A stretch of 64,000 nt of DNA from Alphaproteobacteria bacterium (GTDB taxonomy: Bacteria > Pseudomonadota > Alphaproteobacteria > Bin65), in NCBI GenBank assembly GCA_965220685.1, contig CBDCQR010000004.1, positions 14,542 through 78,541 of the forward strand, in the 5' to 3' direction. The translations under genes were made by a program, and so were the position numbers. Position 1 is the first letter of the stretch. The number at the start of each line of letters is the position of its first letter. The notes under the pieces were generated by a model. The model saw only the letters and a list, made by a program, of their open reading frames with translations, was not told the DNA's origin and made no database searches. Below are positions 26,084 to 42,475 of this stretch, in pieces.

Positions 26084-26551
26084 ATGAGCGGTTGGGGGTG
26101 GTTCTGGACGCTCGTCGGCTTTCTCGTCTACATCGTCGTCCTGATATTCCTGTTCTTCTACAAGCCGTTCGAAGAACTGTTCAATTTCATCATCGCGGAC
26201 ACGACCTTCGACAACGTCGTGTTCTGGGCGGCGCTGCTTACCGGCATCGTCGGCTTCTGCGGATATCACTGGCGGGCCTACCGGCTGCACATCGTCGAAC
26301 AGCGCAGTATGGAGAATATGGTGCTGAGTTCGCTGCGCGGCTCGACCTTCATCGCCATCCTGATCGGCGCCGGCGCGACGCTGCAATCGGTCCAGACCCT
26401 GATCGTCTATCTGGTGCGCGAGCCGGTCGTCCTCGGCCCGGACCTCGGCAAACGGATCGCCGCCGTCCTGGCGCTGATCGTGCTGACCGGCGTGTTCTCG
26501 ATCATCTTCTGGCTGCTGCGGCTGGTCCGCTTCCACACCGAACGCGCCTGA
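26084..26551 (+). CDS. Uncharacterised 4-TM membrane protein (paralogue of 39473-39991)
   Basis: GGGAGG RBS; four hydrophobic segments. Confidence 0.72.
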   Translation: MSGWGWFWTLVGFLVYIVVLIFLFFYKPFEELFNFIIADTTFDNVVFWAALLTGIVGFCGYHWRAYRLHIVEQRSMENMVLSSLRGSTFIAILIGAGATLQSVQTLIVYLVREPVVLGPDLGKRIAAVLALIVLTGVFSIIFWLLRLVRFHTERA

Positions 26552-26701: not shown

Positions 26702-27985
26702 ATGACCATGCCGAGAAAACCGACATTGCACGAGACGAAGACCGGCCTCTCGCGCCGCCGTTTCGTGCTGACAACCGCAGGCGCCGCCGCGGCCGGAACC
26801 ATGACCGGTGCGCCGGCCATCGTCTATGGCGCCGAATCGATCCGGACCATCGGCTTGGGCGTCAGCATCATCAACGAGATCCAGAGCCGGGCGTCGAAAG
26901 ACACCGGCGACAAGATCCGCGGCCAGGCGCTCGGCTACGGCGCCATGGTCGGCAAGATGCTGAACCAGAACGACCAGTACGAAGTCGGCGAAGGCTACTT
27001 CAACGACATGGATCTGATGATCCCGGCGAAAGTCTGGCAGCCGATCGACACCAAGCGCATCAAGAACTGGGACAAGGTCTCCGACCTGACCAAGACCGGC
27101 CGCCTGACGCCGGGCTCGAGCCTGGGACAGGGCGATGCGCCGTTCCGCCATCTCTGGCTGAACAAGGACGGCAGCCGGGCCAAGGGACCGTCGCGCTACA
27201 TCTCCATGCTGCCGGGCTGGCACAACGCCGATTCGATCGGCTACAACCCGGAGGAGACCGGCCGCAAGATCGAGAGCTGGGCCGAGTTGTTCCACGCCGA
27301 CTTCAGGGGCAAGGTCGCGCTGGTGAACGCGCCCCAGATCGGCACGATGGACGCCGCCATGGCCGTCGAGGCCATGGGCCTGATGAAGTTCGGCAACAAG
27401 GGCGACATGACCCGGGCCGAGATCGACCAGCTGGTCAACTTCCTGATCAAGAAGAAGAAGGAAGGCCACTTCCGCGCCTTCTGGGAAACCTTCGGCCAGT
27501 CGGTCAACCTGATGGTGAGCGGCGAAGTCGCGATCCAGAGCATGTGGTCGCCGGCGGTTACCGCCGTGAAGGCCGAAGGCGTGCCCTGCATCTACGCGGC
27601 GCCGAAGGAAGGCATGCGCGGCTGGCACGGCGGCTGCGCCATCTCCGCCAAGGTAACCGGCAAGAAGCTTGACGCCGCCTACGAGTATCTCAACTGGTGG
27701 CTGGACGGCTGGGGCGGCGCGTTCGTCGCCCGCCAGGGCTACTACATGTCGGTGTGGAGCAACGTGAAGGACCATCTCTCGCAGGAGGAATGGGACTTCT
27801 GGTACCTCGGCAAGCCCGCCGCCAAGGAACTGAACGATCCGTTCGGCACGCCGATCGTCAAGAAGGGCGAGATCCGCGACGGCGGTTCCTACGAGGCGCG
27901 CTTCAAGAACATCGCGGTCTGGAACTCGCTCATGAAGGAGAACGACTACCTCGTGAAGCGCTGGACCGAGTTCCTGAGCGCCTGA
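26702..27985 (+). CDS. ABC transporter substrate-binding protein, PotD/PotF-like, Tat-exported
   Basis: Twin-arginine SRRRFV signal; NADSIGYN, YAAPKEG.RGW, AYEYLNWW. Confidence 0.85.
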   Translation: MTMPRKPTLHETKTGLSRRRFVLTTAGAAAAGTMTGAPAIVYGAESIRTIGLGVSIINEIQSRASKDTGDKIRGQALGYGAMVGKMLNQNDQYEVGEGYFNDMDLMIPAKVWQPIDTKRIKNWDKVSDLTKTGRLTPGSSLGQGDAPFRHLWLNKDGSRAKGPSRYISMLPGWHNADSIGYNPEETGRKIESWAELFHADFRGKVALVNAPQIGTMDAAMAVEAMGLMKFGNKGDMTRAEIDQLVNFLIKKKKEGHFRAFWETFGQSVNLMVSGEVAIQSMWSPAVTAVKAEGVPCIYAAPKEGMRGWHGGCAISAKVTGKKLDAAYEYLNWWLDGWGGAFVARQGYYMSVWSNVKDHLSQEEWDFWYLGKPAAKELNDPFGTPIVKKGEIRDGGSYEARFKNIAVWNSLMKENDYLVKRWTEFLSA

Positions 27986-28120: not shown

Positions 28121-29116
28121 ATGCTTCAGACCGCGCCAGCGCATGCAAAACGGCATCACCGCGGCCTGATCGGCGACCAGCCCGCGCCGCCGTCGCTGGA
28201 CATCGTCCGCGTCAAGAAGACCAAGCGCGACCAGATGATCCATCCGGGCTGGCTGGTCGCGCCGGCAAGCCTCTGGCTGATCGTCTTTCTCGTCGTCCCG
28301 CTGATCGGCATCGTGGTGTTCAGCTTCTGGACGCCGGTCAGGGGCGGCATGACGCCGGACTTCACGCTCATCAATTTCGGCAACTTCTTCCGGCAGGAAG
28401 GATTCTTCGACCCCGAACACCGCAATTTCCTGAAGCTCAGCATTTTCATCACGACCCTGTGGACGACCTTCCGCTTCACCGTCACCGTGATGGTCGTCTG
28501 CCTGATCATCGGCTACCCGATCGCTTTTTTCCTGGCGATGCAGGTGAAGAATTTCAAATGGCAGCTGGCGCTGTTCCTGGTCGCGATGGTGCCGTTCTGG
28601 ACCAGTTACCTGATCCGCGCGGTGGCCTGGCTGCCGATGCTCGGCCGGCGCGGCCTGTTCAACAAAATGCTGATGAATCTGGGCATCATCGACAAGCCGA
28701 GTTCCTTCTTCCTGTATTCCGAGTTCGGCTACACGATGGCGCTGGCGCAGCTCTATGTCGTGCTGTGCATCGGGCCGATCTTCTTTTCGCTCGCCAAGAT
28801 CGACAGGGACATCCTGGAAGCGGCCCGGGACATGGGCGCGAGCAGCTACCAGGTCTTCCGCGAGATCATCCTGCCGCTGTCCCTGCCCGGCGTCGCCATC
28901 GGCCTGATCTTCCTGTTCGTCATGCTGATGGGCGAGTTCGCGACCGCCGTCGTCGTCTACGGCGGCAAGACATCGACCACCGGCACGGTGATCCTGAACT
29001 ATTACGGAACCGCCAATTATCCGTTCGCGGCCGTGAACGCGATCATGCTGATGATCGCGATGATGATCGGCGTGTTCTTCATCCTGCGCGTCGTCGACAT
29101 CCGCAAGGAGCTGTAG
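28121..29116 (+). CDS. ABC transporter permease, PotB-like
   Basis: PFWTSYLIRAVAW, EAARDMGAS (EAA loop), ILPLSLPG. Confidence 0.88.
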   Translation: MLQTAPAHAKRHHRGLIGDQPAPPSLDIVRVKKTKRDQMIHPGWLVAPASLWLIVFLVVPLIGIVVFSFWTPVRGGMTPDFTLINFGNFFRQEGFFDPEHRNFLKLSIFITTLWTTFRFTVTVMVVCLIIGYPIAFFLAMQVKNFKWQLALFLVAMVPFWTSYLIRAVAWLPMLGRRGLFNKMLMNLGIIDKPSSFFLYSEFGYTMALAQLYVVLCIGPIFFSLAKIDRDILEAARDMGASSYQVFREIILPLSLPGVAIGLIFLFVMLMGEFATAVVVYGGKTSTTGTVILNYYGTANYPFAAVNAIMLMIAMMIGVFFILRVVDIRKEL

Positions 29117-29119
29117 GCG

Positions 29120-29947
29120 ATGGCGCGCTGGACCAGGCGGAGGACGAAGGCGCTGGCCGTGAAGACCGGCTTCAGCGTCTATTACGTCCTGTTCATCGTC
29201 TTCATTTTCGGGCCGATGATCGCGATGTTCGCCCTGTCCTTCCAGGGCCGGCGCGGCGGCACCAGCTTTCCCATGCGCGGTTTCAGCACCTACTGGTGGG
29301 AGAAGCTGCTGGAGCCGTCCTCGATCGGCGACCTGCAGGGCGCGCTCGCGCGGTCGATTATCCTGGCGCTCGTCGTGATGGTCATCACGGCGCTGTTCTC
29401 GACCATGCTGGCGATGGCGTTCCGGCGCAAGTTCCGGGGCGCCAACCTGCTGTTCTACACGATCATGCTGGGCCTGATGGTGCCGGGCGTGCTGCTCAGC
29501 CTGGGCCTCGCCACCCTGTTGCAGCAGATCGGCATTCCGCCGGCCTGGTGGTCGTCGGGCCTGGGCGTCCATGTCGTCTGGACCCTGCCCTTCGGTTTCC
29601 TGGTGATGATGGCGGTCTTCAACCGGTTCGACAGCAGCCTGGAGGAGGCCGCCCGGGATATGGGCGCCGGCGAATGGACGGTGTTCCGCGAAATTACCCT
29701 GCCGCTCATCCTGCCCGGCATCGTCGCCGCCGGCCTGTTCGGCTTTACCCTGTCCTACGACGAGTTCGCCCGCACGACCCTGCTGTCGGGCGAGTACAAC
29801 ACCCTGCCGCTCGACATCAACGCCTCGATGACCCAGCGCATCCGGCCGACCCTGTTCGCGCTCGGCACCGCCTCCACCATCTTTTCCTTCTGCCTGATCG
29901 GCCTGTTCATCCTGGTCTACACCATCCTCTACCGGCGGGCGCGGTAA
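29120..29947 (+). CDS. ABC transporter permease, PotC-like
   Basis: EEAARDMGA, ITLPLILPG, TLSYDEF. Confidence 0.88.
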   Translation: MARWTRRRTKALAVKTGFSVYYVLFIVFIFGPMIAMFALSFQGRRGGTSFPMRGFSTYWWEKLLEPSSIGDLQGALARSIILALVVMVITALFSTMLAMAFRRKFRGANLLFYTIMLGLMVPGVLLSLGLATLLQQIGIPPAWWSSGLGVHVVWTLPFGFLVMMAVFNRFDSSLEEAARDMGAGEWTVFREITLPLILPGIVAAGLFGFTLSYDEFARTTLLSGEYNTLPLDINASMTQRIRPTLFALGTASTIFSFCLIGLFILVYTILYRRAR

Positions 29948-29983
29948 GCCGGACATGCCGGGCCGGAACGATTGCCGGCGCCG

Positions 29984-31129
29984 CTACAGCGACCGCCCGA
30001 TGATGTATTTCATGATTTCGTTGGTGCCGGCGTAGATCCGGTGCACGCGGGCGTCCGCCCAGGCCCGGGCGATCGGCGTCTCCCACATGTAGCCGTGCCC
30101 GCCATGGAGTTGCAGGCATTCGTCGAGCACCCGGTCGGCAAGCTCCGTGGACGCGAGTTTCGCCATCGCAGCAAGTTCTGCGCTCAGTTCGTCGTCAGCC
30201 AGCAACCGGATCAACCGGTCGACGAAGGGGCGCAAGGACGTGCAGGCTGTCGCCAGTTCGGCGAGCTTGAACTGGGTATTCTGAAAATCGAAGACCCGCT
30301 GGCCGAAGGCGGTTCGATCCTTGGTGTAGGCGACGGTCTGTTCGAGCGCGACCTCGGCGATCGCCATGGACCGGACGGCGGTGACCATCCGTTCGCGGGC
30401 CAGGCCGTGCATCAGCTGGCTCCAGCCCTGCTCCGAATCGCCGAGCAGCGCCGATCCCGGCAACCGGACGTCGTCGAAGAAGAGTTCGGCGGTGTCCTGC
30501 GCCTTGTTGCCGATCTTCTTCAGATTCCGGCCGCGGGTGACGCCGTCCGAATCGAGCGGCACGAGGAACAGGGATATCCCCTTTGCCCCGCGGTCCGGAT
30601 GGCGGTTCGCCGCCAGGAGAATGTAATCGGCGATGTGGCCGTTGGTAATGAAGATCTTGGAGCCGTTCACGAGAACGCCGTTGCCGGACGCCGTTGCCCG
30701 GGTCCGCAGCGCGGCGAGGTCGCTGCCCCCGCCGGGCTCGGTCAGGCCGATGCAGAAGATCGATTCGCCGGCCGCCATCGCCGGCAGGATTCGACGCTTC
30801 TGCTCCCCGGTGCCGTGGGCGGCGATCATCGGCGCGATGATGTGCCCGTGCATGTCCCAGGCCGGCGCCGCGAGGCCGTATCGGCCCAGCTCCTCTATGA
30901 CGATGGCATCCCAGAGGAAATCGCCGCCGGCGCCGCCGTATTCCTCGGGGATGCCGGTGCCGAGCAGGCCCATCTCGCCAGCCCGCAGCCAGATATCCCG
31001 CGGCGTGTATCCCGCATCCTCCCAGTCGGCGTAGTGCGGGACGACCTCGGCCTCCAGAAACGACTGCACGGAGGCGCGGAACAACTCGTGGTCCGGCGAA
31101 AAGAGCGTGCGGGGCAGATCGGCAGGCAT
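29984..31129 (-). CDS. Acyl-CoA dehydrogenase (long-chain type)
   Basis: LTEPGGGSDL, NGSKIFITNG, FQNTQFKLAE, QLHGGHGYM, IYAGTNEIMK. Confidence 0.9.
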   Translation of the reverse strand: MPADLPRTLFSPDHELFRASVQSFLEAEVVPHYADWEDAGYTPRDIWLRAGEMGLLGTGIPEEYGGAGGDFLWDAIVIEELGRYGLAAPAWDMHGHIIAPMIAAHGTGEQKRRILPAMAAGESIFCIGLTEPGGGSDLAALRTRATASGNGVLVNGSKIFITNGHIADYILLAANRHPDRGAKGISLFLVPLDSDGVTRGRNLKKIGNKAQDTAELFFDDVRLPGSALLGDSEQGWSQLMHGLARERMVTAVRSMAIAEVALEQTVAYTKDRTAFGQRVFDFQNTQFKLAELATACTSLRPFVDRLIRLLADDELSAELAAMAKLASTELADRVLDECLQLHGGHGYMWETPIARAWADARVHRIYAGTNEIMKYIIGRSL

Positions 31130-31194
31130 GGTCAGGGTTCGTGCCTCTTAACGGCGAACGATCGGCCCGCGGGTGGTCCTTGCGACCCCGCTTC

Positions 31195-32286
31195 CTACGG
31201 ATTCTGCTCCAGCAGCACGCCGGCGTCGGCGGGCCAGCAGATCGTCTCGCGTTCGCCGGGATCGTACATGCGGTCGTTGACGCCGCGGTGCTGCTCGACC
31301 GAGACGTAGACCTCCGGCGCGATCTCGAACACGTCGGTCTCCAGCGATCCCCGGAACTCGGTCGTGGCGTAAGTGCCCTCGACCCGGTTCGCCATGTCGG
31401 GATGCTCTCCGGTGTGCATCAGGTCGGCGCGCACCGAGAAATGCGCCTCGCGGTCGACATGGACGGCCGCGATATAGTCCGGTACCCGGACATAGAACAT
31501 CCTGCCATGGGCCTCGACGAGCACGATCGAGCCGGAGCGCGAGCGCACAATGCCCCGGATCAGGTTGTTGTTGCCGATGAAGGAGGCGACGAAGCTGGTG
31601 CGCGGCGCTTCGTAGATTTCCCGTGACGTGCCGGTCTGCTGGATCAGCGCGTCGCTCATCACGATTACCTTGTCGGCCATCGACATGGCCTCTTCCTGGG
31701 AATGGGTCACCATGATGAAAGTGATGCCGGTGTCGCGCTGGATCTTCTTCAGCTCGATGATCATCGACTGGCGCAGATTGTAGTCCAGCGCGCCGAGCGG
31801 CTCGTCGAGCAGCAGGACCGTCGGCTCGCTGATCAGCGCCCGGGCCAGCGCGACGCGCTGCTGCTGGCCGCCGGAGAGATCGTGGGGCCTGCGGTCGGCG
31901 AGCGGCCCGAGGCCAACCATTTCCACCATGTCCCGGGTCCGGCGCGCCCGCTCCTCCCTGGGCACGCCCTGCATCTTCAGGCTGAACTCGACATTCTGAA
32001 GCACGTTTCGGTGCGGGAACAGCGCGAAACTCTGGAACATCATCGACGTGTTGCGCTGGGACGGCGGCAGGTCGGTCACGTCCTTGCCGGCGAGCCAGAT
32101 CTTGCCGCTGGTCACCTCCTCGAGGCCGCCGATCATGCGCAGGGTCGTCGTCTTGCCGCAGCCGCTCGGTCCCAGCATCGCGACGAACTCGCCGTGCCGG
32201 ATTTCACAGTTGAAATCGATCACCGCGCGCACGTTGCCCGGAAAGGTCTTGTTCACCCCCTCCAGGACGACGTCGAAATCGGTCAT
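31195..32286 (-). CDS. ABC transporter ATP-binding protein, PotA-like
   Basis: GPSGCGKTT, LSGGQQQRVALARAL, LLLDEPLGALD. Confidence 0.92.
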   Translation of the reverse strand: MTDFDVVLEGVNKTFPGNVRAVIDFNCEIRHGEFVAMLGPSGCGKTTTLRMIGGLEEVTSGKIWLAGKDVTDLPPSQRNTSMMFQSFALFPHRNVLQNVEFSLKMQGVPREERARRTRDMVEMVGLGPLADRRPHDLSGGQQQRVALARALISEPTVLLLDEPLGALDYNLRQSMIIELKKIQRDTGITFIMVTHSQEEAMSMADKVIVMSDALIQQTGTSREIYEAPRTSFVASFIGNNNLIRGIVRSRSGSIVLVEAHGRMFYVRVPDYIAAVHVDREAHFSVRADLMHTGEHPDMANRVEGTYATTEFRGSLETDVFEIAPEVYVSVEQHRGVNDRMYDPGERETICWPADAGVLLEQNP

Positions 32287-32341
32287 CGGCGGTACCGCCG
32301 GCGCATCGGCAACGGTTCCTCCGGCCCGGCGGGCGCTTCGG

Positions 32342-34900
32342 TCAGTCGGTCCTTTCCGTCAGCGCGCTCAGCAGCGACCAGATCGTCTCGAACGGCACGT
32401 CGGCGAAATCGCCCTCGGCCGCGACCTGTTTGAGAAGGCCGACGGCGCGCTGCTGCGCCGGATCGTTGCCGGCCGCTTCTTCCAGCTTGCCGACCGCCTC
32501 GCCGAGCGGCGCCTGCCGGGCCGCCTCAGTGCCCAGTTCGCGCTCGACCAGAACCTTGAGCTGGCCGTGGGTCTGGAGCAGCAGGCCGCTGTCCGCAGGC
32601 CGGCCGAACAGGCCGCGCAGCCCGTTGGCGTTGAAGCGGTCGCGCAGGCCGTCCGGCATCGAGTGGGCCAGCCCCTCCATCGCCTCGCCCAGGCCGAAGC
32701 CGGAGTTGAACAGGCCGCGAATCGTGTCCATCGTGCCGTCGTTGCTGCCGCCATACATGCGGATATGCGCGCCTTCCAGGGCGTTGCCCATGGCCTTGGC
32801 CTGGTCGATATGGACGTCGCGCTCGGCCTCGATGAAGAGCTTCGAAAGCTCCAGGAACATTGCGGCCTCGTTGTATTTCTTGAGCGCGTCGGCCTTGGCC
32901 TCCATGCCGGCGGCCTCGGCCTTCAGCTTTTCCTCGGTCCGCTGCACGCGCAGCGCCTCGATCTCCATCTCGGCCCGGCCCCGGGCGCCGGCCTCGCGCT
33001 CAACGCCCTCGGCGGTGATTTTCTGCGCCTCGCTATTGGCATTGGCCTTTGTCAGCGTGGCCGCGGCCTCGCGCTCCGCCGACTGCTGGCGCGCCTCGGA
33101 CTGGGTGACCATGTGCATGCTGGCGATCTGCGCCTTCGCTTCTTCGGCGATCCGCTCGGCCGCGGCCTGCTTCTCGGCCTCGATGCGCCGGATTTCCTTC
33201 TCCGTCTCGGCGTCGGCGAGATGGCCGGCGGCCTCGGCGGCGTGGGTTGCCCGGATGCGGTCCGCGGTGGTGGCCAGCCGGTCGGCCTCGGCGGCCTCCA
33301 GTTCCCGCGTCTTCTCCTCCAGCGCGATCTCGCGGTCGCGCTCCTCGATCTCACGCGCCAGGAAACGCCGGATGTCGACGGTCTCGCGCTCCTGTTCCTT
33401 GCCGATCAGCGCGATTTCCCGCTCCCGCTCCTCCAGTTCGACGGCCAGCTGGCGTTTGATCTCGGCGGCTTCCTTCTTGGTCCCCTCGTCAATGATCGCC
33501 GCGTCCTTCTCGATCCGAGCGGCCTCGTAGGCCCGCTCCTTTTCGATCTCCTCCTGCTGTACGGTCCAGCGCTGTTCGATGATGAAGCGCTGGGATTCGC
33601 TCATCGTCCGCGCCTTCTCGTTGGAGACCTCCTGCTCCTGGTTGGCGGAGGCGAATTCCTCCTCCTTGTCCAATTCCAGCAGGTTCAACCGGGTCGCCAG
33701 GCTCAGCCGGCGGGTTTCCAGCGCCGCCTGTTCGGCGGCCTTGTGGCGCTCGATCCGGGCCGACTCCTCTTCGGCGGCGACCGCGGTCGCCTGGGCGATG
33801 TCGGCCTTCTGGCGCTCGACCTCTTTCTGGATCAGGCCGATCTGCTTGTCCTTCTCCGCCTTCTCGCGCGCCAGTGAGCGGTCGATTTCGGCCAGTTCCT
33901 CTTCCTTGGCCTTGGCGATAATGGCGATTTCCTTGTCGCGGCGCTCCTGCTCCAGTTTCAGGGCCTTCTGGATTTCGGACGCCTCGCGCTTCTGGGCCTC
34001 TTCCGTGATCGCCAGTTCGCGGTCGGTGCGCATCTTTTCGAGCTCGACCTCGTTGCCAATCTCCTGCTCTTCGACGGCCTTGCGCTGGTTGAGGATGAAG
34101 ACCTGCTTCTCGCGCATCTGCAGGGCTTCCTCGTTGGAGATCGCCTTGTCCTGATTGGCGCGCGCGGTCGCTTCCTGGCGCTCGATCTCGAGCAGTTCGA
34201 GCTGGGTGTCCAGATCCTTCTGGCGGATCGCGACCGTGGTGCGTTTTTCGGTGTCGTGGACCTTGCGCCGGGCGTCGCTGGTGATCTCAGTGATGATTTT
34301 CAGGCCCTCGGCGTCGAACACGTTGTCGGTCTTGAAATGCTCCTTGCCGGTCTGTTCCAGGGTGACGACGGTGACCTCTTCCAGGGTCAGGCCGTTGGCG
34401 TTGAAGCTTTCGGTCACGTTGGCCTTGATCGCCTCGGCCATCGCTTCGCGGTTCTCGTGCAGTTCCTTGAGCGACTTGGTGGCGGCATAGCTGCGCAGGG
34501 CACCGACCACCTTGGCTTCGAGCAGGCTGCGCACCTTCTCCGGATCGAAGGTCTTCTCGCCCAGGCTGCGCCCCGCGGTCAGCAGTTCCTGCTCGGTCCG
34601 GCCGACATGGGTGTAGAGTTCCGCCCCGACATCGACGCGGACATTGTCATGGGTCAGAATCGCCTGGTCGCGCGAGCGGCTGACGATCAGCTTGATCGTC
34701 TCGAGCGAGACCCAGGTCACCTCATGGAAGACGGGCAGGACGATCGCACCGCGGCCCAGGCACACCTTGGTGCCGAGGAAGCCGGTGCGGATGAAACCCA
34801 TGTTCGACGGCGCGCGCTTATACACCCAGATCGACAGGATGTAGATGATCGCGATGACGATGATCGCCAGCACGATGCCGACGATGATGTTCTCAACCAT
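32342..34900 (-). CDS. Flotillin-like SPFH protein with very long coiled coil, 852 aa
   Basis: N-terminal TM helix, SPFH domain (RTGFLG..V...GAIVLPVFH, T.DNVRVDV), NVFDAEGL, then about 500 aa of E/K/R/A-rich helix. Confidence 0.88.
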   Translation of the reverse strand: MVENIIVGIVLAIIVIAIIYILSIWVYKRAPSNMGFIRTGFLGTKVCLGRGAIVLPVFHEVTWVSLETIKLIVSRSRDQAILTHDNVRVDVGAELYTHVGRTEQELLTAGRSLGEKTFDPEKVRSLLEAKVVGALRSYAATKSLKELHENREAMAEAIKANVTESFNANGLTLEEVTVVTLEQTGKEHFKTDNVFDAEGLKIITEITSDARRKVHDTEKRTTVAIRQKDLDTQLELLEIERQEATARANQDKAISNEEALQMREKQVFILNQRKAVEEQEIGNEVELEKMRTDRELAITEEAQKREASEIQKALKLEQERRDKEIAIIAKAKEEELAEIDRSLAREKAEKDKQIGLIQKEVERQKADIAQATAVAAEEESARIERHKAAEQAALETRRLSLATRLNLLELDKEEEFASANQEQEVSNEKARTMSESQRFIIEQRWTVQQEEIEKERAYEAARIEKDAAIIDEGTKKEAAEIKRQLAVELEEREREIALIGKEQERETVDIRRFLAREIEERDREIALEEKTRELEAAEADRLATTADRIRATHAAEAAGHLADAETEKEIRRIEAEKQAAAERIAEEAKAQIASMHMVTQSEARQQSAEREAAATLTKANANSEAQKITAEGVEREAGARGRAEMEIEALRVQRTEEKLKAEAAGMEAKADALKKYNEAAMFLELSKLFIEAERDVHIDQAKAMGNALEGAHIRMYGGSNDGTMDTIRGLFNSGFGLGEAMEGLAHSMPDGLRDRFNANGLRGLFGRPADSGLLLQTHGQLKVLVERELGTEAARQAPLGEAVGKLEEAAGNDPAQQRAVGLLKQVAAEGDFADVPFETIWSLLSALTERTD

Positions 34901-35002
34901 GCTTCCGCCCCTCCGTGTCGGGCATTCTCGTACGGCGGCACCTGGCCGGCCGCCGCCCCGTTTCCGGCCTGCGATGGCCGTTCATTCGTCCGCCGCCCGA
35001 AA

Positions 35003-37249
35003 TCACCGCGCGCTCCCGCCGCCGGACCGGCCGCCGGATCTGCCGAGCGTCTCGCGCAGTTCCTGAGTCGCCTTCCTGTCGATCGTACAGGCCGCCGGGC
35101 TGCCGGCGACGACGACACCATAGCGATCCCGGGCCCCGGCCGTCGAGACCAGGCCGCGCCGGACATCTTTCTGGACCTGTTCGGGGCTGCGGTCCAGCGG
35201 ATTGCCCCATCCGCCGCCGCCCGCGGTCCGGAAGATCAGTCGGTCCCCGGGCGCCACCCCCACACCGCCGGCCTTCGAGCCCGGCTGTTCGCGCGATCCG
35301 TCGGTTCGCACCACGATCTTCTCGGAACACGCCCCGGCCTCGCCGCCGTTGCGGCCCCAGGGTTGCGATTGCTCCCGTTCGTCGCGCCAGCTCAACGTGC
35401 CGGCCGTCCGGAACCTGTAGACTTTCTCGACACCACAGCCGCCGCGATGCGCACCGGCGCCGCCGCTGTCGGCAATTGCCGTTACGCTCTCGACTGTGAC
35501 GGAGAAGTCCGATTCCAGCTGTTCGGCCGGCCGGCTCCTGGCGCCGGCGGAGAGCGACCGACCGTCCCCGCCGTCGCGCCCGGAGCGCGCCGGCGCGCCG
35601 CCGAACAGGCGGTCGGTCAGGGAAACCGCCCGGCCGCCGTCGTCCTCGCCGGTGAATACGAGCTGCGGGCTGGACCCGTAGCCGGCCGCGGCGCCCGCGG
35701 CGCCGGCGAACTGGCCGAGCACGCCGTTCAACACATCGTAGACCCGCGCCAGGGTCTGGGCGCCGTTGCCCAGCGGCGCCGGAAAACGCGGGTGCAAAAG
35801 GCTGCCCGGGGGAAGCGTGATGCGCAGCGGCGCCAGCACCCCGTCGTTGACCGCAATTTCCGGATCGAAGGTCCGGATCAGCAGACCGGCGGCGATATGG
35901 GCGAAGACTGTATCGTCAAGCAGCAGGTTGACCGGTCCTTCGGCCTGGGCTGCCGTGCCCGTCCAGTCGAAAAACGCCTGTTCGCCCTCGCGCCATACCG
36001 CCAGCTTGAGTGTGAACGGTCCGTTGCCGCAGCCGTCGCTGTCGATCCTGTCCTCGAAGGATTTCGGCTCTTCGGGGAGATGCTCGGCAACGATCCGGCG
36101 CAGGGCCCGCCCGGTGCGCTCCAGCGCCGCGGCGCAGGCCTGCCGGTAACTCTCGGTCCCGAAGCGGACGCACAGGTCGGCGATTCCCCGTTCGCCGGCC
36201 TGCGCCGCTTCGACCAGCGCGCGGAGGTCGCCGTGGGCCGCCCCGGATTCGGGAATGTTGTTCAGCATGAGGTCCAGCGCCGCGCTGCCGGCCTGGCCAT
36301 TGTCGAAAATGCGGATCGGCGGAATCCGCAGCCCTTCGCCGTAGACCGAGCGCGCGCCGTTCGGGGCGCTTCCCGGGGCCGCGCCGGCGCTGCCGGCCAT
36401 CGGCTCCGTCGCGGCGCTGAAACCGACCGGATCGCCGCCGGTCTCCGCGGCGAATACCGGAACGATCGCCGTCCACGTCCCGGCCTGAACGCCGGCGTAG
36501 GGATCGCCGACCAGGAAAACGTCGCCCGGGCGGAGATCGCGCGACCGGTTGCGGGCCAGGCCGGCGACGGCCGGCACCGGACGGCCGATCAATGTGGCGC
36601 CGCGGGCGTCGGTCAGCGTCGCCGTTTCGGCGGCCTTCTGCCGCACCGGTTCGGCGATCGCAGCCTGCGCCAGAACGTTGCCCGCTTCCTTGCGGATCTG
36701 ACGCCAGGCCGCCTCGATCCGGTCGAGGGCGAGCGCATCCAGTGCGCCGCTCGGGGCCGGAGCGGCGCGCTGCCCCGTAGTCGCTGGGGCCGCAGGAGCG
36801 CGCGGCGGGGCAGGATCCGTCGTGGCCGCCGACGGTTGCGCGCCGTGGGCCAGCGCATCGGCCGCCCTTGCGAGGGCCGACCGGCGCGCCGACTCCAGCG
36901 CCGCCTCGCGGTCCTGGTCTGCCGGCGCATCGCCGAATTCGAGGGCGGAGCGGCCGTCCACCGTCAGCCGGTAGAGCGCCGAAAGCGTGTTGCCGGTCAC
37001 TTGTGTTTCGACCAGCTCGGCGGACCAGTCCGCGCCGAACCGCCGGCTCAGCACGGCATCGATGTCCGAAGCCGCCTCGGCGTGCGGTTCGGCCGCCGGC
37101 TCTTCCGGAGCCGCAGCGCGCTGTCCTCGGTTGCGCAGTCCGGCGGCGTCCGCCTGGCGCAGCCGGTCGGCAAAAGTCCGGTCGAATTGCTCGCGGGTCG
37201 ATTCCAGCATCGCGTCGAGCGACGGAGTCGAGGAACGGGGCGGCGTCAT
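35003..37249 (-). CDS. Degenerate hydantoinase B/oxoprolinase-like protein with N-terminal extra domain
   Basis: ATG at 37249 overlaps the upstream stop (ATGA); HyuB fold motifs EGLRIPP, DSDG, TAGGGGWGNPLDR; metal-ligand motifs are missing. Confidence 0.8.
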   Translation of the reverse strand: MTPPRSSTPSLDAMLESTREQFDRTFADRLRQADAAGLRNRGQRAAAPEEPAAEPHAEAASDIDAVLSRRFGADWSAELVETQVTGNTLSALYRLTVDGRSALEFGDAPADQDREAALESARRSALARAADALAHGAQPSAATTDPAPPRAPAAPATTGQRAAPAPSGALDALALDRIEAAWRQIRKEAGNVLAQAAIAEPVRQKAAETATLTDARGATLIGRPVPAVAGLARNRSRDLRPGDVFLVGDPYAGVQAGTWTAIVPVFAAETGGDPVGFSAATEPMAGSAGAAPGSAPNGARSVYGEGLRIPPIRIFDNGQAGSAALDLMLNNIPESGAAHGDLRALVEAAQAGERGIADLCVRFGTESYRQACAAALERTGRALRRIVAEHLPEEPKSFEDRIDSDGCGNGPFTLKLAVWREGEQAFFDWTGTAAQAEGPVNLLLDDTVFAHIAAGLLIRTFDPEIAVNDGVLAPLRITLPPGSLLHPRFPAPLGNGAQTLARVYDVLNGVLGQFAGAAGAAAGYGSSPQLVFTGEDDGGRAVSLTDRLFGGAPARSGRDGGDGRSLSAGARSRPAEQLESDFSVTVESVTAIADSGGAGAHRGGCGVEKVYRFRTAGTLSWRDEREQSQPWGRNGGEAGACSEKIVVRTDGSREQPGSKAGGVGVAPGDRLIFRTAGGGGWGNPLDRSPEQVQKDVRRGLVSTAGARDRYGVVVAGSPAACTIDRKATQELRETLGRSGGRSGGGSAR

Positions 37250-39291
37250 GCGGCGTTGCCCCCGTCCCGGTCCGGCGCGATGACGAGCGCGCCGTCGGCC
37301 CCGGCCGCGCCGGCATAGCCGGGATGAACCACCGCCGTCCAACCGTCCCCGGCGACCAGCGCCGGGCCGGCGACCCGGCTGCCGGCCTCCAGCCTGTTTG
37401 TCGCATAAACCGGCGCGGTCAGGAAATTGCCGTCGAGATAGATTCGCTGCTCGCCGACCTTTGCGCCGGAAGCGTCGCCCCGGCCGGACGGCCGCGGCGC
37501 GGACCGGCCCGGCGATGCGCCGTTGCGCCGTCCTGCCGCCCTGCCGCCTGCGACGGCGCGCAGCCGGACCAGTTCGACCGGCGCATCGAGCCGGACCCCG
37601 TGACGTTGCTCGAAGGCAGTCGCGAAGCGGTCCGCCAGGTCGCGCAGGCCCCAGTTGGGCAGGTTCACCGGATCGATATCGAGCGTGAAATCGCTGCCCT
37701 GACCGCGATAGCGCACATCCGCTTCGAAGCGGAGCTGCCGGCCGGTTGCGGACTCGCCCTCCTCGTCCAGCCAGGCGTTGGCGCTGCCGCCCAGCGAATC
37801 GAGAATCTCTCCGACGGTCGCGGCGTTCGTATCGTCGAGCAGGCAGCGGCAGCTGTGCCCGAATTCCTGCCGGGGCTGCGCATCGACAAAGCCGCGGGCC
37901 GACATCGAGCCCGGCCGCGCCGGGATGACGACCGGCCCGTCGCCGCACAGGATGGCGAGCGCATTGCCGTGCAGCGGCCCGGCGCCGCCATAGGCGACCA
38001 GCGGCATCGACGCGATGTCGACGCCGTGCGCCGCCGCAGTCTGGCGCAGGGCGCCGTACAGTTTCTCGTTGGCCAGGTCGCGAACGCCCTGCGCCGCCTG
38101 ATAGGGGTTCACGCCCAGCCGGTCGGCGAGGCGGGCGATCGCAGCCTCCGCCGCGGCGCGGTCGGGCGCAAATCCTTCGACGGACCCGGCCGGGATCAGG
38201 CCGAGCACGAGGTTCGCGTCGGTGAGCGTCGGCCCGTCGCCGCCGAAGCAGGCGGGCCCGCCGGCCGCGGCCTCCGGCCCGACGCGCAGCGCGCCATGAC
38301 CGGTGATCCGCACCGCCGCACCGCCGCCGGCGCCCGCCTGGAGGACGGCGATGGACGGCAGTGTCAGGTTCGCGCCGGCAACCCGCGTCCTGCGGGTCAC
38401 GACCGGCGCGCCGTCGAGAACGATCCCGATCGTGGTCGCGCCGCCGCCCATATCCAGCGCGAGCGCATCGCGGCAGCCGGCATGCGACGCTGCTACGGCG
38501 GCGGCGGCAACGCCCGCGGCGGGCCCGGCATTGAGCGCATCGACCGGCGCGTCGCCGGCATGCACGACCGACATCGATCCGCCGTCGGCGCGCGCGACAC
38601 GGATCTCCGCCGTGGCTTCCAGAGTGCGCAGCGTGTCGGCAAAGCCCTCGAAATAGCGGGTGAGCGCCGGGCGCAGCACCGCCGTCGACACCGCGGCGAC
38701 CGTCCGCTCGTAATCGGCCGATTCCCGGACGACATCGCTGGACAGGACGACCGGCATATCGGCGGCAATTTCGCCGATCAGCGCCTTGAGCGCCCGCTCG
38801 TGCGCCGGGTTCGCCGCGGCGTGGAGCAGCGAAACCGCGATGGCAGTCGCACCGAGGTCGCGCAGCGTCTGGATCGCGTCTCTTGCCCTCGCTTCGTCGA
38901 TCGGCTGCCGGACCTGACCGCCCGCCTCCATGCGCTCGGCAATGCCGAGGGTTGCGACGATGCGGCCGGCCAGCGGGCTCGTCCCCTGGCCGCGGCCGAG
39001 CAGCAGCACATGCTCGAAGCCGGCCGTGACCAGCAGGCCGACGGTCGGACCGCCGGTTTCCGCAGGGTCGAGCCCCGAGACGCCGTGAACGACCGTCGCG
39101 ATATCGCCGGGCGCGACGCCGGCCCCGGAGGCCAACTCGCGAATGCCGCCGGCGATGGCGGAAGCCGGATCGTCGGGGCTGTTCGCCGTCTTGAGCGCGT
39201 GCACCGTCCCGGAATCGTCGAGCAGCAACAAATCCGTGAACGTCTTGCCGATATCGATACCCAGACGATGGGGCATGGAGTTTTCCGTCAT
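37246..39291 (-). CDS. Divergent hydantoinase A/oxoprolinase-like protein
   Basis: GIDIGKTFTD, DMGG, GAGGG, PTLTDAN, YGGAGPLH; several ATP-site motifs altered. Confidence 0.82.
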   Translation of the reverse strand: MTENSMPHRLGIDIGKTFTDLLLLDDSGTVHALKTANSPDDPASAIAGGIRELASGAGVAPGDIATVVHGVSGLDPAETGGPTVGLLVTAGFEHVLLLGRGQGTSPLAGRIVATLGIAERMEAGGQVRQPIDEARARDAIQTLRDLGATAIAVSLLHAAANPAHERALKALIGEIAADMPVVLSSDVVRESADYERTVAAVSTAVLRPALTRYFEGFADTLRTLEATAEIRVARADGGSMSVVHAGDAPVDALNAGPAAGVAAAAVAASHAGCRDALALDMGGGATTIGIVLDGAPVVTRRTRVAGANLTLPSIAVLQAGAGGGAAVRITGHGALRVGPEAAAGGPACFGGDGPTLTDANLVLGLIPAGSVEGFAPDRAAAEAAIARLADRLGVNPYQAAQGVRDLANEKLYGALRQTAAAHGVDIASMPLVAYGGAGPLHGNALAILCGDGPVVIPARPGSMSARGFVDAQPRQEFGHSCRCLLDDTNAATVGEILDSLGGSANAWLDEEGESATGRQLRFEADVRYRGQGSDFTLDIDPVNLPNWGLRDLADRFATAFEQRHGVRLDAPVELVRLRAVAGGRAAGRRNGASPGRSAPRPSGRGDASGAKVGEQRIYLDGNFLTAPVYATNRLEAGSRVAGPALVAGDGWTAVVHPGYAGAAGADGALVIAPDRDGGNAA

Positions 39292-39472
39292 TCCTCCCGC
39301 GCGCCGCCCGGGGGGCTGGCGCGCAGGCGGATAATTCCCAACGCGGCCCGCGCCGTCAACCGATGCAGCGCCCGTTGCGGGGCGACCGATCGGCCCCTGC
39401 GTCGGGGCTTTTTTTCCGAAACCCGGTATGCTGTACTGCCGGCCGTTTCAACAACCGGACCCCGTTCGAGCC

Positions 39473-39991
39473 ATGGCGCAGGTAACCGAGGGCCTACGTT
39501 CCCTTCGATTCTGGATCGTTGTCGTCGGCCTCGTGATCCTGGCGGTCTTCGTCTATTTCTATCCACCCTTCGAGAAACTGGTCAGCGACAGCATCCGGGG
39601 CCTGGCGTCGTCGACCATCGTTTTCTGGTTCGCCGCCTTCGTCGGCGTCGTCGCCTACGTCATCGCGCACTGGCAGTCGTTCCGCCAGCACTTCTTCCGC
39701 CGGGTCAGCGATCTGGACGCTGAAGGGCTGGTCTTCGACACGCTGCAGGTCGCGCTGCTGGTCGCGCTGATCCTGTGCGCCGGAGGGATTCTTCAGCTCA
39801 TCGAAATGCTGAGCCTGCACCTGATCGACAAGGGCACGGTGCTCGACCCGGTCTTTGGGCGCAAATTGCTGGCCATGATCGTTCTGGTGATCCTGGCGAT
39901 CGGCTTCTACCTGCTGCACCGCATGGTGCGCGCCTTCCGCCTCGGCCGCCGCCCCGGCCGCACCCCGCCACGCCGCAGTTCGAGCGCCTAA
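39473..39991 (+). CDS. Uncharacterised 4-TM membrane protein (paralogue of 26084-26551)
   Basis: YFYPPFEKL / VFW / HWQSFRQH pattern shared with 26084-26551. Confidence 0.72.
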   Translation: MAQVTEGLRSLRFWIVVVGLVILAVFVYFYPPFEKLVSDSIRGLASSTIVFWFAAFVGVVAYVIAHWQSFRQHFFRRVSDLDAEGLVFDTLQVALLVALILCAGGILQLIEMLSLHLIDKGTVLDPVFGRKLLAMIVLVILAIGFYLLHRMVRAFRLGRRPGRTPPRRSSSA

Positions 39992-39996
39992 GGGAC

Positions 39997-41013
39997 CTAC
40001 GCGGCCGCCAGCGCGTTGAAGGCGCCGAGCGAGCCTTCGATCTCCGCCCGGTCCATGTCCTGAACGATGAAGACGATGCGCGAGCGGCGGTCGCCGTCGG
40101 GCCAGCCGGTCATGTGGGTCGGCGGATGGACGATGTGCTGGACGCCGTTGATCAAGACCGGGTCGGCGACACCGGCAACGTTCAGCATGCCCTTGACGCG
40201 CAGGACGCGCTCGCCGTGCCGGTTGAGCAGCATGCTCATCCACAGGCCGAACGCCGTCCAGTCCATCGGCCCGTCGAATCGGAGGCAGAAAGAGCCGACC
40301 CCGTGGCTGTGGTCGTGGTCGTGTCCGTCGCCGGAAGCCCCGGCGAATCCGTCCAGCCAGCCGGCGACCTCGCGCCGCTTGCCGCCAGTCGCATAAAGAT
40401 CGTCGGTCAGGAGGGCGTCCGGATCGAGCGGGTCGGAGTCCAGGTCGAGAACCGGCGCGGCGGCGTTGATGTCGCGCACGGCGGCGCGGACGGCCCGGCC
40501 GCCGTCGTCCGCCATCGCCGTCTTGGTCAGCACGAACCGATCGGCGATCGCTGCCTGCTTGACCGATTCGGGATGGCGTTCGAGCTGCGCCGCCCCGTTC
40601 ACCGCATCGATGACGGTGACGGCGTTGCCGAGCCGGAAGTGATGCTGCAGTACCGGCTCGGCGAGGATCGTGTAGGCGATGGGAGTCGGGTCGGCGAGGC
40701 CGGAAGTCTCGATGGCGATGCGCCGGAAGGCCGGGATCTCGCCGCGCGTGCGCTGGGAGAACAGGCTTCTCAGCGCGCCCTGCAAGTCGCCGCGGATGGC
40801 GCAGCACAGGCAGCCGCTGTCCATCAGCAGGACGCTTTCCTCGGCATGCTCGATCAGGTGATGGTCGAGGCCGACTTCGCCAAACTCGTTGATGAGGACG
40901 GCGGTGTCGCGCAGGGCCGGTGACTGGAGCAGCCGGGCCAGCAGGGTCGTCTTGCCGCTGCCGAGGAATCCGGTGACGATGTTGATCGGGATCAGCGTGT
41001 CGTAGGCGGTCAT
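39997..41013 (-). CDS. CobW/COG0523 family GTPase metallochaperone
   Basis: TGFLGSGKTT, INEFGEVGLDH, GCLCC, IETSGLADP, His-rich HDHDHSH, LRVKG. Confidence 0.92.
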   Translation of the reverse strand: MTAYDTLIPINIVTGFLGSGKTTLLARLLQSPALRDTAVLINEFGEVGLDHHLIEHAEESVLLMDSGCLCCAIRGDLQGALRSLFSQRTRGEIPAFRRIAIETSGLADPTPIAYTILAEPVLQHHFRLGNAVTVIDAVNGAAQLERHPESVKQAAIADRFVLTKTAMADDGGRAVRAAVRDINAAAPVLDLDSDPLDPDALLTDDLYATGGKRREVAGWLDGFAGASGDGHDHDHSHGVGSFCLRFDGPMDWTAFGLWMSMLLNRHGERVLRVKGMLNVAGVADPVLINGVQHIVHPPTHMTGWPDGDRRSRIVFIVQDMDRAEIEGSLGAFNALAAA

Positions 41014-41383: not shown

Positions 41384-42475
41384 TCAGACGAGCACCGATT
41401 CCGGCCGCGCCGCCCCCTCGCGCGGATAGCGCTGGATGAAATCGTCGGCGATCTCGTCGAAGGTGCACCAGCGCACGCCGGCATGCTGGCTGATATAGTC
41501 GAACACCCGCTCCAGCATCAGCAGGACCTGCGGCCGGCCGGCGACGTCCGGGTGGATGGTCAGCGTGTAGACCGCGTAGTCGTATTCCCGGTAGACCCAT
41601 TCGAACTGCTGGAGCCACAGGTCCTCGATATCCCGCGGGTTGACGAAGCCGAAGCTGTTCGGCGCCGACTTGATGAACATCATCGGCGGCAGGTCGTCGA
41701 GATACCAGCTGCCTGGAATGTCGACGAGGTCGGTCTCGACGCCGCGCACCAGCGGCTTCATCCACTCATCCGCGTTCTTTGAATAGTCGATCTTGGTCCA
41801 GCTGTCGCCGACCCGCGCGTAGAAGGGGTGGAAATCGTTGTTCATCAGGCTGTGGTCGTACTTGATGCCCTTCTTGAGCAGCAGCTCGTTGGTGATCGCG
41901 CTGAACTCCCACCAAGGCGCGACATAGCCGGTCGGCCGGCGGCCGGACAGCCGCTCGATCAGCTCGATGCACTTGTCCAGAACCGCCTCTTCCTGCTCCG
42001 GCGTCATGGAGATGGGGTTCTCGTGGGAATAGCCGTGCATGCCGATCTCGTGGCCGGCGTCGACCACCATCTTCATCTGCTTCGGGAATGTCTCGATCGA
42101 ATGGCCGGGAATGAACCAACTCGTCCGGATGCCGAACTTGTCGAACAGCCGGACCAAGCGCGGCGAGCCGATCTCGCCGGAAAACAGGCCGCGGGAGATG
42201 TCGCAGGGCGAATCCTCACCGCCGTAGGAGCCGAGCCAGCCGGCGACCGCATCGACATCGATCCCGATGGCGCACAGGATGTCCTTCTTGCCGCCGCCCG
42301 AGGCTGCCGCTGCGGGCGCAGGGCGGGTCGGAGCAGCCAGCGGCGGGCCGCCGCCGGGCGCACGGCCGCCCGGGTCAGTCCCCCGGTCAATCAGGGAACG
42401 TGGCTGGTAACGCGGCCCGATCCCGCCGGAAGCGCGGGTCGCCCGCATCGAATCGCTGGTTCTGTCGTCGCTCAT
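41384..42475 (-). CDS. Polysaccharide deacetylase family (CE4, H. pylori PgdA-like) with ~62-aa N-terminal extension
   Basis: [44 protein letters not shown]. Confidence 0.88.

Follow-up and report, generated by a model that had tools for sequence, protein, structure and literature searches.

The question which proteins are gathered by flotillin-like scaffolds, and how these clients are chosen, is still largely open. A stretch of 64,000 nucleotides from an alphaproteobacterial genome (GenBank assembly GCA_965220685.1, contig CBDCQR010000004.1, positions 14,542 to 78,541), referred to as the window in the following, raises this question for one particular protein. On its minus strand, the gene for a flotillin-like SPFH protein of 852 amino acids (aa) lies directly downstream of two genes for hydantoinase-like subunits, hyuA2 and hyuB2, and directly upstream of potA, coding for a PotA-like ABC ATPase. 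What is the role of such a protein between an enzyme and a transporter? The original prediction, made from the sequence alone, was that of a tall membrane cage enclosing a transporter together with enzymes carrying N-terminal tags.

The analysis reported here points to a genetically hard-wired and directly testable answer. The SPFH protein was identified as a fixed member of a conserved uptake and catabolism island of 17-25 kb, in which three enzymes carry N-terminal extensions (tags) specific for the island. It is probable, if only just, that an SPFH platform on the cytoplasmic membrane face serves as an anchor for the tagged enzymes next to an ABC importer, with HyuA2/HyuB2 serving as a structural adaptor in the genus of the window. 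The DNA is rich in G+C (about 67%), and the nearest relatives of the window are Rhodospirillaceae-like metagenome-assembled genomes (MAGs) from sponges and corals.

A distinct SPFH subfamily linked to hyuA, hyuB and potA

The SPFH protein had been designated a flotillin. This name is justified by homology over the membrane anchor, the SPFH domain and the helical region: over residues 20-588, the protein is 32% identical to one of the canonical flotillins encoded in this genome (573 columns, E 2e-57), and 33-42% with ordinary flotillins of the class. However, the C-termini of the SPFH protein and of this same-genome flotillin are unrelated, and the Flot domain PF15975, which scores 99-124 bits in the four canonical paralogues of the genome and in five flotillins from other genomes, was not found; for the C-terminal domain, no Pfam match was obtained at E<=10. 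In the tree, the SPFH orthologues form a separate clade with a support of 100/100, on a stem of 2.68 changes per site and with short internal branches. Because of this clade on its long stem, the missing Flot domain and the unrelated C-terminus, the protein is a distinct, deeply branching SPFH subfamily which is related to flotillins and stands outside the canonical ones. No significant match among PDB sequences was obtained with the whole protein, with a profile of 27 sequences or with the first 260 residues; stomatin came closest (E 0.2).

The minus-strand run of hyuA2, hyuB2, the SPFH gene, potA and an acyl-CoA dehydrogenase gene was found as originally described, with coordinates and Pfam assignments in agreement. 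It lies, also as described, in a hydantoinase/amidase island. This contains a second HyuA/HyuB pair, an amidase gene and an isochorismatase-family gene of the N-carbamoylsarcosine-amidase type. The linkage was followed over some 35 loci, which represent 11 or more families of the Alphaproteobacteria. The order hyuA-hyuB-SPFH-potA was present in 14 out of 14 loci from species-representative genomes, with identities down to 57-61% for the SPFH protein and down to 40-46% for HyuA/HyuB, and likewise with SPFH versions of 914, 941 and 1023 aa. An even draw of 401 alphaproteobacterial genomes revealed an SPFH orthologue in 18 genomes of at least 11 families; here, hyuB preceded the SPFH gene in all 17 loci with an upstream flank, compared to none of 12 loci with ordinary flotillins. 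Long SPFH orthologues were never found in unrelated contexts, with hyuA-hyuB upstream and the ABC ATPase gene downstream wherever the flank suffices; the finding named beforehand as speaking against the original prediction was therefore not made.

The acyl-CoA dehydrogenase, originally counted as part of the system, has to be removed from it: the gene is confined to the lineage of the window and is absent, displaced or variably spaced in most relatives. The spacer between potA and the acyl-CoA dehydrogenase gene ranges from ~140 bp to 1.7 kb among close relatives (L001, L002, L005, L006, L009, L010), which suggests recent insertions at that junction. In the locus of the 1023-aa version (L015), hyuA and hyuB are interrupted by an OMP-decarboxylase-family gene (L015:6521-7336), and the SPFH gene is followed by inserted ankyrin-repeat, VWA and AAA-ATPase-like/PDDEXK genes before potA is reached (L015:13100-19457). 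The SPFH protein of a MAG labelled as a Betaproteobacteria bacterium (L014) groups with that of the alphaproteobacterial genome G064 with a support of 100/99, so that either the bin is mislabelled or the island has crossed between classes.

The conserved order of the island is isochorismatase<, deacetylase-family hydrolase>, CobW>, 4-TM b<, hyuA>, hyuB>, SPFH>, potA>, permC<, permB<, SBP<, 4-TM a<, (amidase<), 353-aa membrane protein<, where 4-TM a and b are proteins with four transmembrane helices, SBP is the substrate-binding protein of the importer and the arrowheads give the orientation. The gene for 4-TM b is present in every locus with a flank and not in SPFH-less relatives. SBP orthologues of at least 71% identity are confined to SPFH genomes (16/16), and the next-best SBPs, with 41-48% identity, come from SPFH-less genomes. 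In SPFH-less relatives potA is located inside the permease operon; in the island it is the sole ATPase gene for the convergent permeases. In the SPFH-less genomes G155 and G079 the module of hydrolase and CobW genes can adjoin the importer, and in G208 a module of HyuA1/HyuB1, isochorismatase and YrdC genes; beside the importer of these three relatives, no SPFH gene, 4-TM gene or tag was found. Because these genomes keep the importer and hydrolase modules without the SPFH gene, 4-TM genes and tag, the SPFH gene seems to belong to a later addition to an older core of importer and hydrolase genes. Pfam scans of the locus revealed no NfeD-family gene among the neighbours of the SPFH gene and no gene for FtsH or another protease.

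The relocation of potA beside the SPFH gene might point to a scaffold for the transporter only. The SPFH protein would then stabilise or regulate the ABC importer, and the tags would dock on the 4-TM proteins, the 353-aa protein, the ATPase or the bilayer. Stomatin and flotillins are known to stabilise or regulate channels and pumps; the four other flotillins of the genome adjoin ABC importers or a rhodopsin gene, a context of Liv-type ABC/UPF0261 and flotillin genes recurs in four further genomes, and the 4-TM and 353-aa proteins are as specific for the island as the SPFH protein. However, the closest and most constant neighbour of the SPFH gene is hyuB, even where 7 kb lie between the SPFH gene and potA (L015). 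In addition, the acidic and amphipathic tag helices appear nearer to protein-docking helices than to membrane anchors. A scaffold for the transporter only is thus considered unlikely.

N-terminal extensions and loss of catalytic residues

The tags of the original prediction were found again as a conserved motif with a flexible linker on HyuB2, HyuA1 and the polysaccharide-deacetylase-family hydrolase, and orthologues of HyuA1 and of the hydrolase in genomes without the SPFH gene lack them. In every SPFH-linked HyuB, the initial M is followed by 10-13 residues, the motif SLDDLL[KR][SA]N[KR]xQFD and a Pro/Ala-rich linker. In most lineages a domain of ~75 residues and a second linker precede the HyuB core; the whole extension amounts to ~170 aa in HyuB2, where the Hydantoinase_B domain begins only at about residue 170-190. 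The tag helix comprises residues 11-35 in the AlphaFold2 (AF2) model, with a predicted local distance difference test score (pLDDT) of about 78. The tag occurs once per locus and at the N-terminus in 34 out of 34 SPFH-linked HyuBs, and its peptide is found at no other place in the 4-Mb genome, although this contains 12 HyuAB pairs. When a profile of the extension was compared to 1.84 billion proteins, the tag turned out to be confined to HyuB proteins or fragments. Three apparent exceptions on other enzyme families (P0203, P0202, P0139) look chimeric or frameshifted and were rejected. Reciprocally, four divergent full-length HyuBs were identified by their tag, and downstream of all four lie an SPFH gene for 854-920 aa and an ABC ATPase gene.

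The domain between the two linkers resembles Rad52. The extension profile matches more than 20 stand-alone proteins, of which 9 out of 10 scanned exceed the Pfam Rad52_Rad22 cut-off; the sequence of the window alone gave no Pfam match. The AF2 model shows a helix-beta-beta-beta-helix fold with pLDDT values of 84-92, for which human RAD52 rings were the top four matches in a fold search (probability 1.00).

HyuA1 of the second pair carries a different helix, with the consensus DLT[NS]WFDSQLDDLKxEFDKLG, which is likewise unique in the genome. In the 401-genome sample, a search with the first 300 residues identified 12 orthologues bearing the helix, all from SPFH genomes; in a thirteenth SPFH genome (G188) a diverged helix was recognised by eye. 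The 16 orthologues from SPFH-less genomes all start at the enzyme core and have no extension. The co-occurrence gives a Fisher p of 1e-6 to 1e-7, uncorrected for shared ancestry. Two tag-like helices in tandem, LTSWFDDQLDALKRRVDGLG and then SLDRQLDDLDARVERLG, are present in the HyuA1 extension of the locus L093 (G050:C1, upstream of about 101074). The extension of the hydrolase is conserved in 13 SPFH islands, and the 79%-identical orthologues of the SPFH-less genomes G155 and G079 begin with MAKEIFCAFG and are not extended. A relationship between the HyuA1 and HyuB2 tags was suggested by hand alignment and rejected when cross-searches with hidden Markov models gave no link. The isochorismatase-family protein starts with a helix-like stretch, ELDDLQTKLKDAF, N-terminal to its Pfam domain, which may either belong to the fold or represent a fourth tag.

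The HyuA2/HyuB2 pair had been called a pseudo-hydantoinase. PDB matches for HyuB2 are 7hk5 and 6yra_B. In CapB, the metal ligands D41/H99/D102/H124, which are conserved in hydantoinases, oxoprolinases and carboxylases, abolish activity when mutated (PMC8453981). The equivalent residues of HyuB2 are A/Q/T/P, and in the genus of the window all four ligands are replaced, with substitutes differing between the genomes. HyuB1 and 17 SPFH-linked HyuBs from other families keep the complete tetrad, and some or all of its residues are lost in six further loci (L014, L063, L068, L078, L079, L080). Tetrad loss has thus apparently occurred independently in several lineages; because most other families keep the ligands, it is taken as the derived state in the genus of the window. 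In HyuA2, the ASKHA phosphate loops look degenerate in this genus; they read DIGKTFTD and DMGGGATT, compared to DVGGTFTD and DMGGTSTD in orthologues of other families. These loops vary within the genus, and the Asp pair equivalent to CapA D11 and D295 remains. Both frames are open and under purifying selection, with ratios of nonsynonymous to synonymous substitution rates (dN/dS) of 0.20-0.36 for hyuA2 and 0.24-0.38 for hyuB2. Judged by the lost metal ligands, HyuA2/HyuB2 is catalytically dead in this genus, and the designation as pseudo-hydantoinase stands there. That a dead enzyme is retained together with its tag, with an open frame and under purifying selection, speaks for a structural instead of a catalytic role, one connected with the island.

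The same findings bear on the explanation that no physical complex exists at all. According to this, the genes stay together solely through inheritance or transfer of the island as one block; the SPFH protein would have a general membrane function, and the extensions would serve other ends such as solubility or regulation. The SPFH tree, with its short internal branches, is at odds with family taxonomy, and integrases were identified in the window at 6144-8548. However, the order hyuA-hyuB-SPFH-potA outlasts a drop of HyuA/HyuB identity to 40-50% and the turnover of other genes, the SPFH gene (dN/dS 0.05-0.18) belongs to the island genes under the strongest constraint, extensions arose on three different enzymes in this island alone, and tags persist on dead enzymes. 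Mere block inheritance is therefore held to be very unlikely.

Architecture of the SPFH protein and a possible docking platform

Directly after the membrane helix, the stretch YKRAP..FIRTG is invariant in the orthologue alignment. By the positive-inside rule, its KR-rich character predicts an N-out, C-in orientation with the bulk of the protein in the cytoplasm, and the enzymes, being devoid of signal peptides, are consistent with this location. The AF2 model of the SPFH protein (a monomer from a shallow alignment) is poor, with a pLDDT of 59, and the secondary structure alone was used from it. Helices span residues 197-408, 416-556, 560-593 and 599-709, together ~510 helical residues. The predicted helix of about 500 aa with an additional C-terminal helical domain therefore holds, with three short breaks. 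The C-terminal residues 770-850 reach pLDDT values of 72-87, and the C-terminal domain has the highly conserved motifs GFGLGEALEG..SLPxGLR and VPFETVW. The best fold matches of the weak model were the flotillin-2 Band 7 domain, prohibitin and stomatin, all with E>0.08; the major vault protein (MVP) was also among the weak matches.

The helical region contains 20% Glu, 17.5% Ala and 18% Arg+Lys, and its autocorrelation has a single peak at a lag of 29 residues. A heptad periodicity was rejected: no 3.5-residue signal was present, only harmonics of the 29-residue repeat. The differences in length between orthologues are due to insertions of complete 29-residue modules at two sites, after residue 338 and after residue 515, resulting in proteins of 804, 822, 851/852, 880, 909-915, 937-946, 965, 994 and 1023 aa. 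Typical flotillins had been described as markedly shorter, which is correct for the typical forms; however, great length is not unique to this subfamily, as there are canonical flotillins of 956 and 1125 aa with other gene neighbourhoods.

Such modules invite the reading closest to the original prediction, namely a closed, tall cage. Here, a sealed SPFH dome or barrel of tens of nm would surround the importer together with the tagged enzymes, and its height would depend on how many 29-residue modules are present. SPFH relatives (flotillin, HflK/C, prohibitin) are reported to form closed or nearly closed cages, flotillin being described as a right-handed helical barrel of 22 subunit pairs (10.1101/2024.05.09.593390). 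The ~510 helical residues and lengths quantised in 29-residue steps fit such a barrel, and 29/8, or 3.63 residues per turn, would suit near-straight, slightly right-handed helices. The three cargo-like tags with linkers resemble encapsulation peptides, and HyuB2 carries a domain of a ring-forming type. However, the two sites of repeat expansion are unequal, which makes a matched helical hairpin unlikely; a sealed cytoplasmic compartment needs routes for ATP and products; native HflK/C is reported as open and asymmetric (PMC12048511); and the supposed cargo HyuAB2 is catalytically dead in several lineages. The closed cage is thus rated as rather unlikely. Of the original prediction, the linkage and the tags receive strong support, the cage and the organelle none. 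Equally improbable is what a closed or nearly closed dome over the importer would entail, the first SPFH-based bacterial enzyme nanocompartment, loaded with at least three different enzymes by N-terminal targeting peptides, with HyuB2 rings formed by a co-opted Rad52 domain and a pseudoenzyme that repeatedly became purely structural.

The platform, as the preferred interpretation, would work as follows. Like other SPFH proteins, the 852-aa protein would oligomerise at the cytoplasmic face of the inner membrane and provide a docking platform beside the SBP-dependent ABC importer, whose ATPase gene has been relocated to the position immediately downstream of the SPFH gene. The tethers would be N-terminal docking peptides, borne on long and flexible linkers: for HyuA2/HyuB2 the HyuB2 helix and, in most lineages, the Rad52-like, ring-forming domain; for HyuA1/HyuB1 the HyuA1 helix; and for the deacetylase-family hydrolase its Pro/Arg motif. 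A cyclic amide or carbamoyl compound brought in by the importer would thereby be processed where it enters the cell. In the genus of the window, HyuA2/HyuB2, being catalytically dead, would have to act structurally, for example as an adaptor or lining. Gene content, strict linkage, island-specific extensions, loss of catalytic residues and purifying selection are observed; oligomerisation, membrane orientation, tag-SPFH binding and the substrate class are what the platform would add to them.

Several points weigh against the platform. Oligomerisation of the SPFH protein and binding of the tags are inferred, and the AF2 monomer is of low confidence. The HyuA1 and HyuB2 tags are not detectably related and all three tags differ from one another, and a HyuA1-like copy without a tag occurs in one SPFH genome (G300). 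The two 4-TM proteins and the 353-aa membrane protein are equally island-specific and could be the true docking partners of the tags. Because HyuAB2 is dead, bringing catalytic activities together cannot by itself explain the system of this genome, and processing at the point of entry then rests on HyuAB1 and the hydrolase. Finally, the short internal branches and the tree not following family taxonomy suggest that the island may spread horizontally as a unit, in which case the co-occurrence counts overstate the number of independent events.

If true, the platform would account for the retention of a dead HyuAB pair, for the metabolic reuse of a Rad52-like ring domain and for a modular tuning of SPFH helix length. 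The bacteria carrying the island are abundant sponge and marine Alphaproteobacteria. It is probably relevant to their utilisation of nitrogen compounds derived from the host, for example hydantoins, creatinine-type compounds or lactams. Should the tags work as proposed, they would be usable to tether enzymes at membranes.

Related systems, transcription and further flotillins

FloT from B. subtilis and YqiK from E. coli have about 510-550 aa and are usually paired with an NfeD gene. The SPFH protein shares with them the N-terminal anchor, the SPFH domain and the Glu/Ala-rich helical region. In contrast to them, it has no Flot domain PF15975 and its own C-terminal domain of ~130 aa, belongs to a separate clade and contains at least 300 extra helical residues with 29-residue modules; its gene has no NfeD neighbour and is strictly linked to HyuAB and an ABC ATPase.

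Also related are the flotillin-associated rhodopsin clusters of Pelagibacterales, HIMB59 and Pseudothioglobus (PMC10308929), in which a flotillin is tied genetically and transcriptionally to one membrane client, among transporters and amide-type metabolic genes. The proposed client here is instead an ABC importer together with soluble enzymes with docking-like extensions, and the SPFH subfamily is another one. Client-dedicated flotillins are thus already known (PMC10308929). Among the papers that could be searched, there was no description of the subfamily, of the enzyme tags or of the linkage to HyuAB, and no paper joining SPFH with hydantoinase; the combination of flotillin and oxoprolinase led only to the rhodopsin paper (PMC10308929).

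HflK/HflC-FtsH from E. coli is similar in that an SPFH assembly is dedicated to a defined ATP-dependent membrane machine, as proposed here. It is, however, a periplasmic heteromer of two paralogues with a protease as client, compared to a single gene, a predicted cytoplasmic location and no protease nearby. The vault is reported as a cage of MVP (PMC12280208) with an SPFH-related fold and a long helical cap that houses the enzyme PARP4; it is eukaryotic, soluble and off the membrane, and has no sequence relationship to the SPFH protein beyond the fold. Encapsulins and bacterial microcompartments (BMC) offer a functional analogy, with short conserved terminal peptides on flexible linkers and several enzymes encoded beside a structural gene. 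Here, however, the structural protein is of the SPFH and not of the HK97 or BMC fold, the three tags are unlike, and docking is putative. Compared to CapAB (6YRA) and N-methylhydantoinase (7HK5), both pairs of the window have HyuA and HyuB domains and HyuB1 keeps the D-H-D-H tetrad; HyuB2 differs by its N-terminal extension of 170 aa and, in this genus, by having none of the four CapB metal ligands (PMC8453981).

Co-transcription of the run, originally stated as a fact, is suggested for hyuA2-hyuB2-SPFH-potA. The stop codon of hyuA2 overlaps the start of hyuB2 as ATGA, and the gaps downstream of hyuB2 are 102, 55 and 65 bp (to the SPFH gene, potA and the acyl-CoA dehydrogenase gene). The SPFH gene has a GGAGG ribosome-binding site 9 nt 5' of its ATG. 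Within 29500-40200, the promoter candidate upstream of hyuA2 is the sole promoter-like match on the minus strand, and no terminator-like sites were found on this strand. Two sponge metatranscriptomes contain contigs ~92% identical to the SPFH gene, one spanning the gap to potA and another linking the 3' end of hyuB to the SPFH gene. The SPFH gene of these relatives is transcribed. The coordinates of all features are given in Table 1.

Table 1. Features of the SPFH island in the window (positions of the window; AF2, AlphaFold2).
Feature	Position	Strand	Remarks
hyuA2	37246-39291	minus	HyuA-like subunit, 681 aa; Pfam Hydantoinase_A with N and C domains
hyuB2	35003-37249	minus	tagged HyuB-like subunit, 748 aa; Pfam Hydantoinase_B, 347 bits
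HyuB2 N-terminal docking-like helix	37172-37222	minus	SLDAMLESTREQFDRTF; family consensus SLDDLLKANKDQFDKLF
Rad52-like domain of HyuB2 extension	36845-37069	minus	between Pro/Ala linkers; profile homology, AF2 fold
Long flotillin-like SPFH protein	32342-34900	minus	852 aa; PF01145
Single N-terminal transmembrane helix, residues 4-26	34823-34891	minus	predicted from hydrophobic stretch in sequence; YKRAP next
SPFH/Band 7 domain, residues 47-180	34361-34762	minus	Pfam PF01145, 50.9 bits against cut-off of 23.6
Glu/Ala/Arg/Lys-rich helical region, residues 197-709	32774-34312	minus	DSSP on AF2 model; 29-residue modules
Family-specific C-terminal helical domain, residues 723-850	32351-32734	minus	distinct from Flot domain
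potA, PotA-like ABC ATPase	31195-32286	minus	Pfam ABC_tran, NCBIfam PotA-like
Acyl-CoA dehydrogenase	29984-31129	minus	lineage-specific insertion
Sigma-70-like promoter candidate 5' of hyuA2	39331-39359	minus	TTGACG-17-AATTAT, 9/12; consensus match only
SBP and two permeases of ABC importer	26702-27985, 28121-29116, 29120-29947	plus	Pfam; convergent with SPFH operon
4-TM protein a	26084-26551	plus	155 aa; paralogue of 4-TM protein b
4-TM protein b	39428-39991	plus	187 aa; divergent from hyuA2; Pfam match to Yip1-like weak only
353-aa polytopic membrane protein	23499-24560	plus	conserved island member (synteny)
Amidase	24568-25968	plus	Pfam; conserved island member (synteny)
CobW-family GTPase	39997-41013	minus	338 aa; Pfam; conserved neighbour of deacetylase-family hydrolase (synteny)
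Polysaccharide-deacetylase-family hydrolase	41384-42475	minus	Pfam; island-specific N-terminal extension
Hydrolase N-terminal motif	42389-42418	minus	GP[RST]Y[QRS]P[RSQ][SPA]L[LI]; then Gly/Ser/Pro/Ala linker
hyuA1	20270-22696	minus	808 aa, catalytically intact type; Pfam core from residue 126
HyuA1 N-terminal helix	22616-22678	minus	DLTNWFDSKLADLQEQIDKLG; then ~100-aa Pro/Ala/Ser linker
hyuB1	18357-20255	minus	632 aa; D-H-D-H tetrad intact; without extension
Isochorismatase-family gene, N-carbamoylsarcosine-amidase type	17061-17765		Pfam domain from residue 39

A candidate role in anti-phage defence was rejected, as neither the SPFH protein nor HyuA2, HyuB2 and the small membrane proteins were matched by PADLOC. 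The same genome (G000) contains 11 Band 7 matches in 4 Mb, among them the four canonical flotillins, all of which have the Flot domain and adjoin a transporter or pump; with the SPFH protein, five such cases are counted. At C9:70770-78453 (L074), a canonical flotillin is encoded together with a Liv-type SBP, an ABC ATPase, an ABC ATPase-UPF0261 fusion, a PEP-hydrolase-like gene and SRPBCC proteins. The fusion gene beside a canonical flotillin recurs in four other genomes from other families (L069, L070, L071, L073); flotillins in this context have 685-1125 aa, and the PEP-hydrolase-like gene was seen in G000. In this context, a flotillin is combined with an ABC importer and an enzyme for a second time, and independently.

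Two further canonical flotillins of G000, of 576 and 535 aa, lie beside a Dpp-type (C15:521337-528471, L075) and a Liv-type (C5:146817-151749, L077) ABC importer, respectively. At C12:190951-193749 (L076:4750-7548), a bacteriorhodopsin-like gene for 229 aa is located directly 5' of a gene with the same orientation that encodes a canonical flotillin of 678 aa; this pair of a sponge-associated genome matches the published flotillin-associated rhodopsin arrangement (PMC10308929). Three clustered Band 7 matches on the same strand, with open frames of 803, 799 and 485 aa, were identified at C1:125728-128240. The genome also contains about 12 HyuA/HyuB pairs, distributed over contigs C4, C9, C15 and C17, an unusually large set of ATP-dependent hydantoinase/oxoprolinase-type enzymes.

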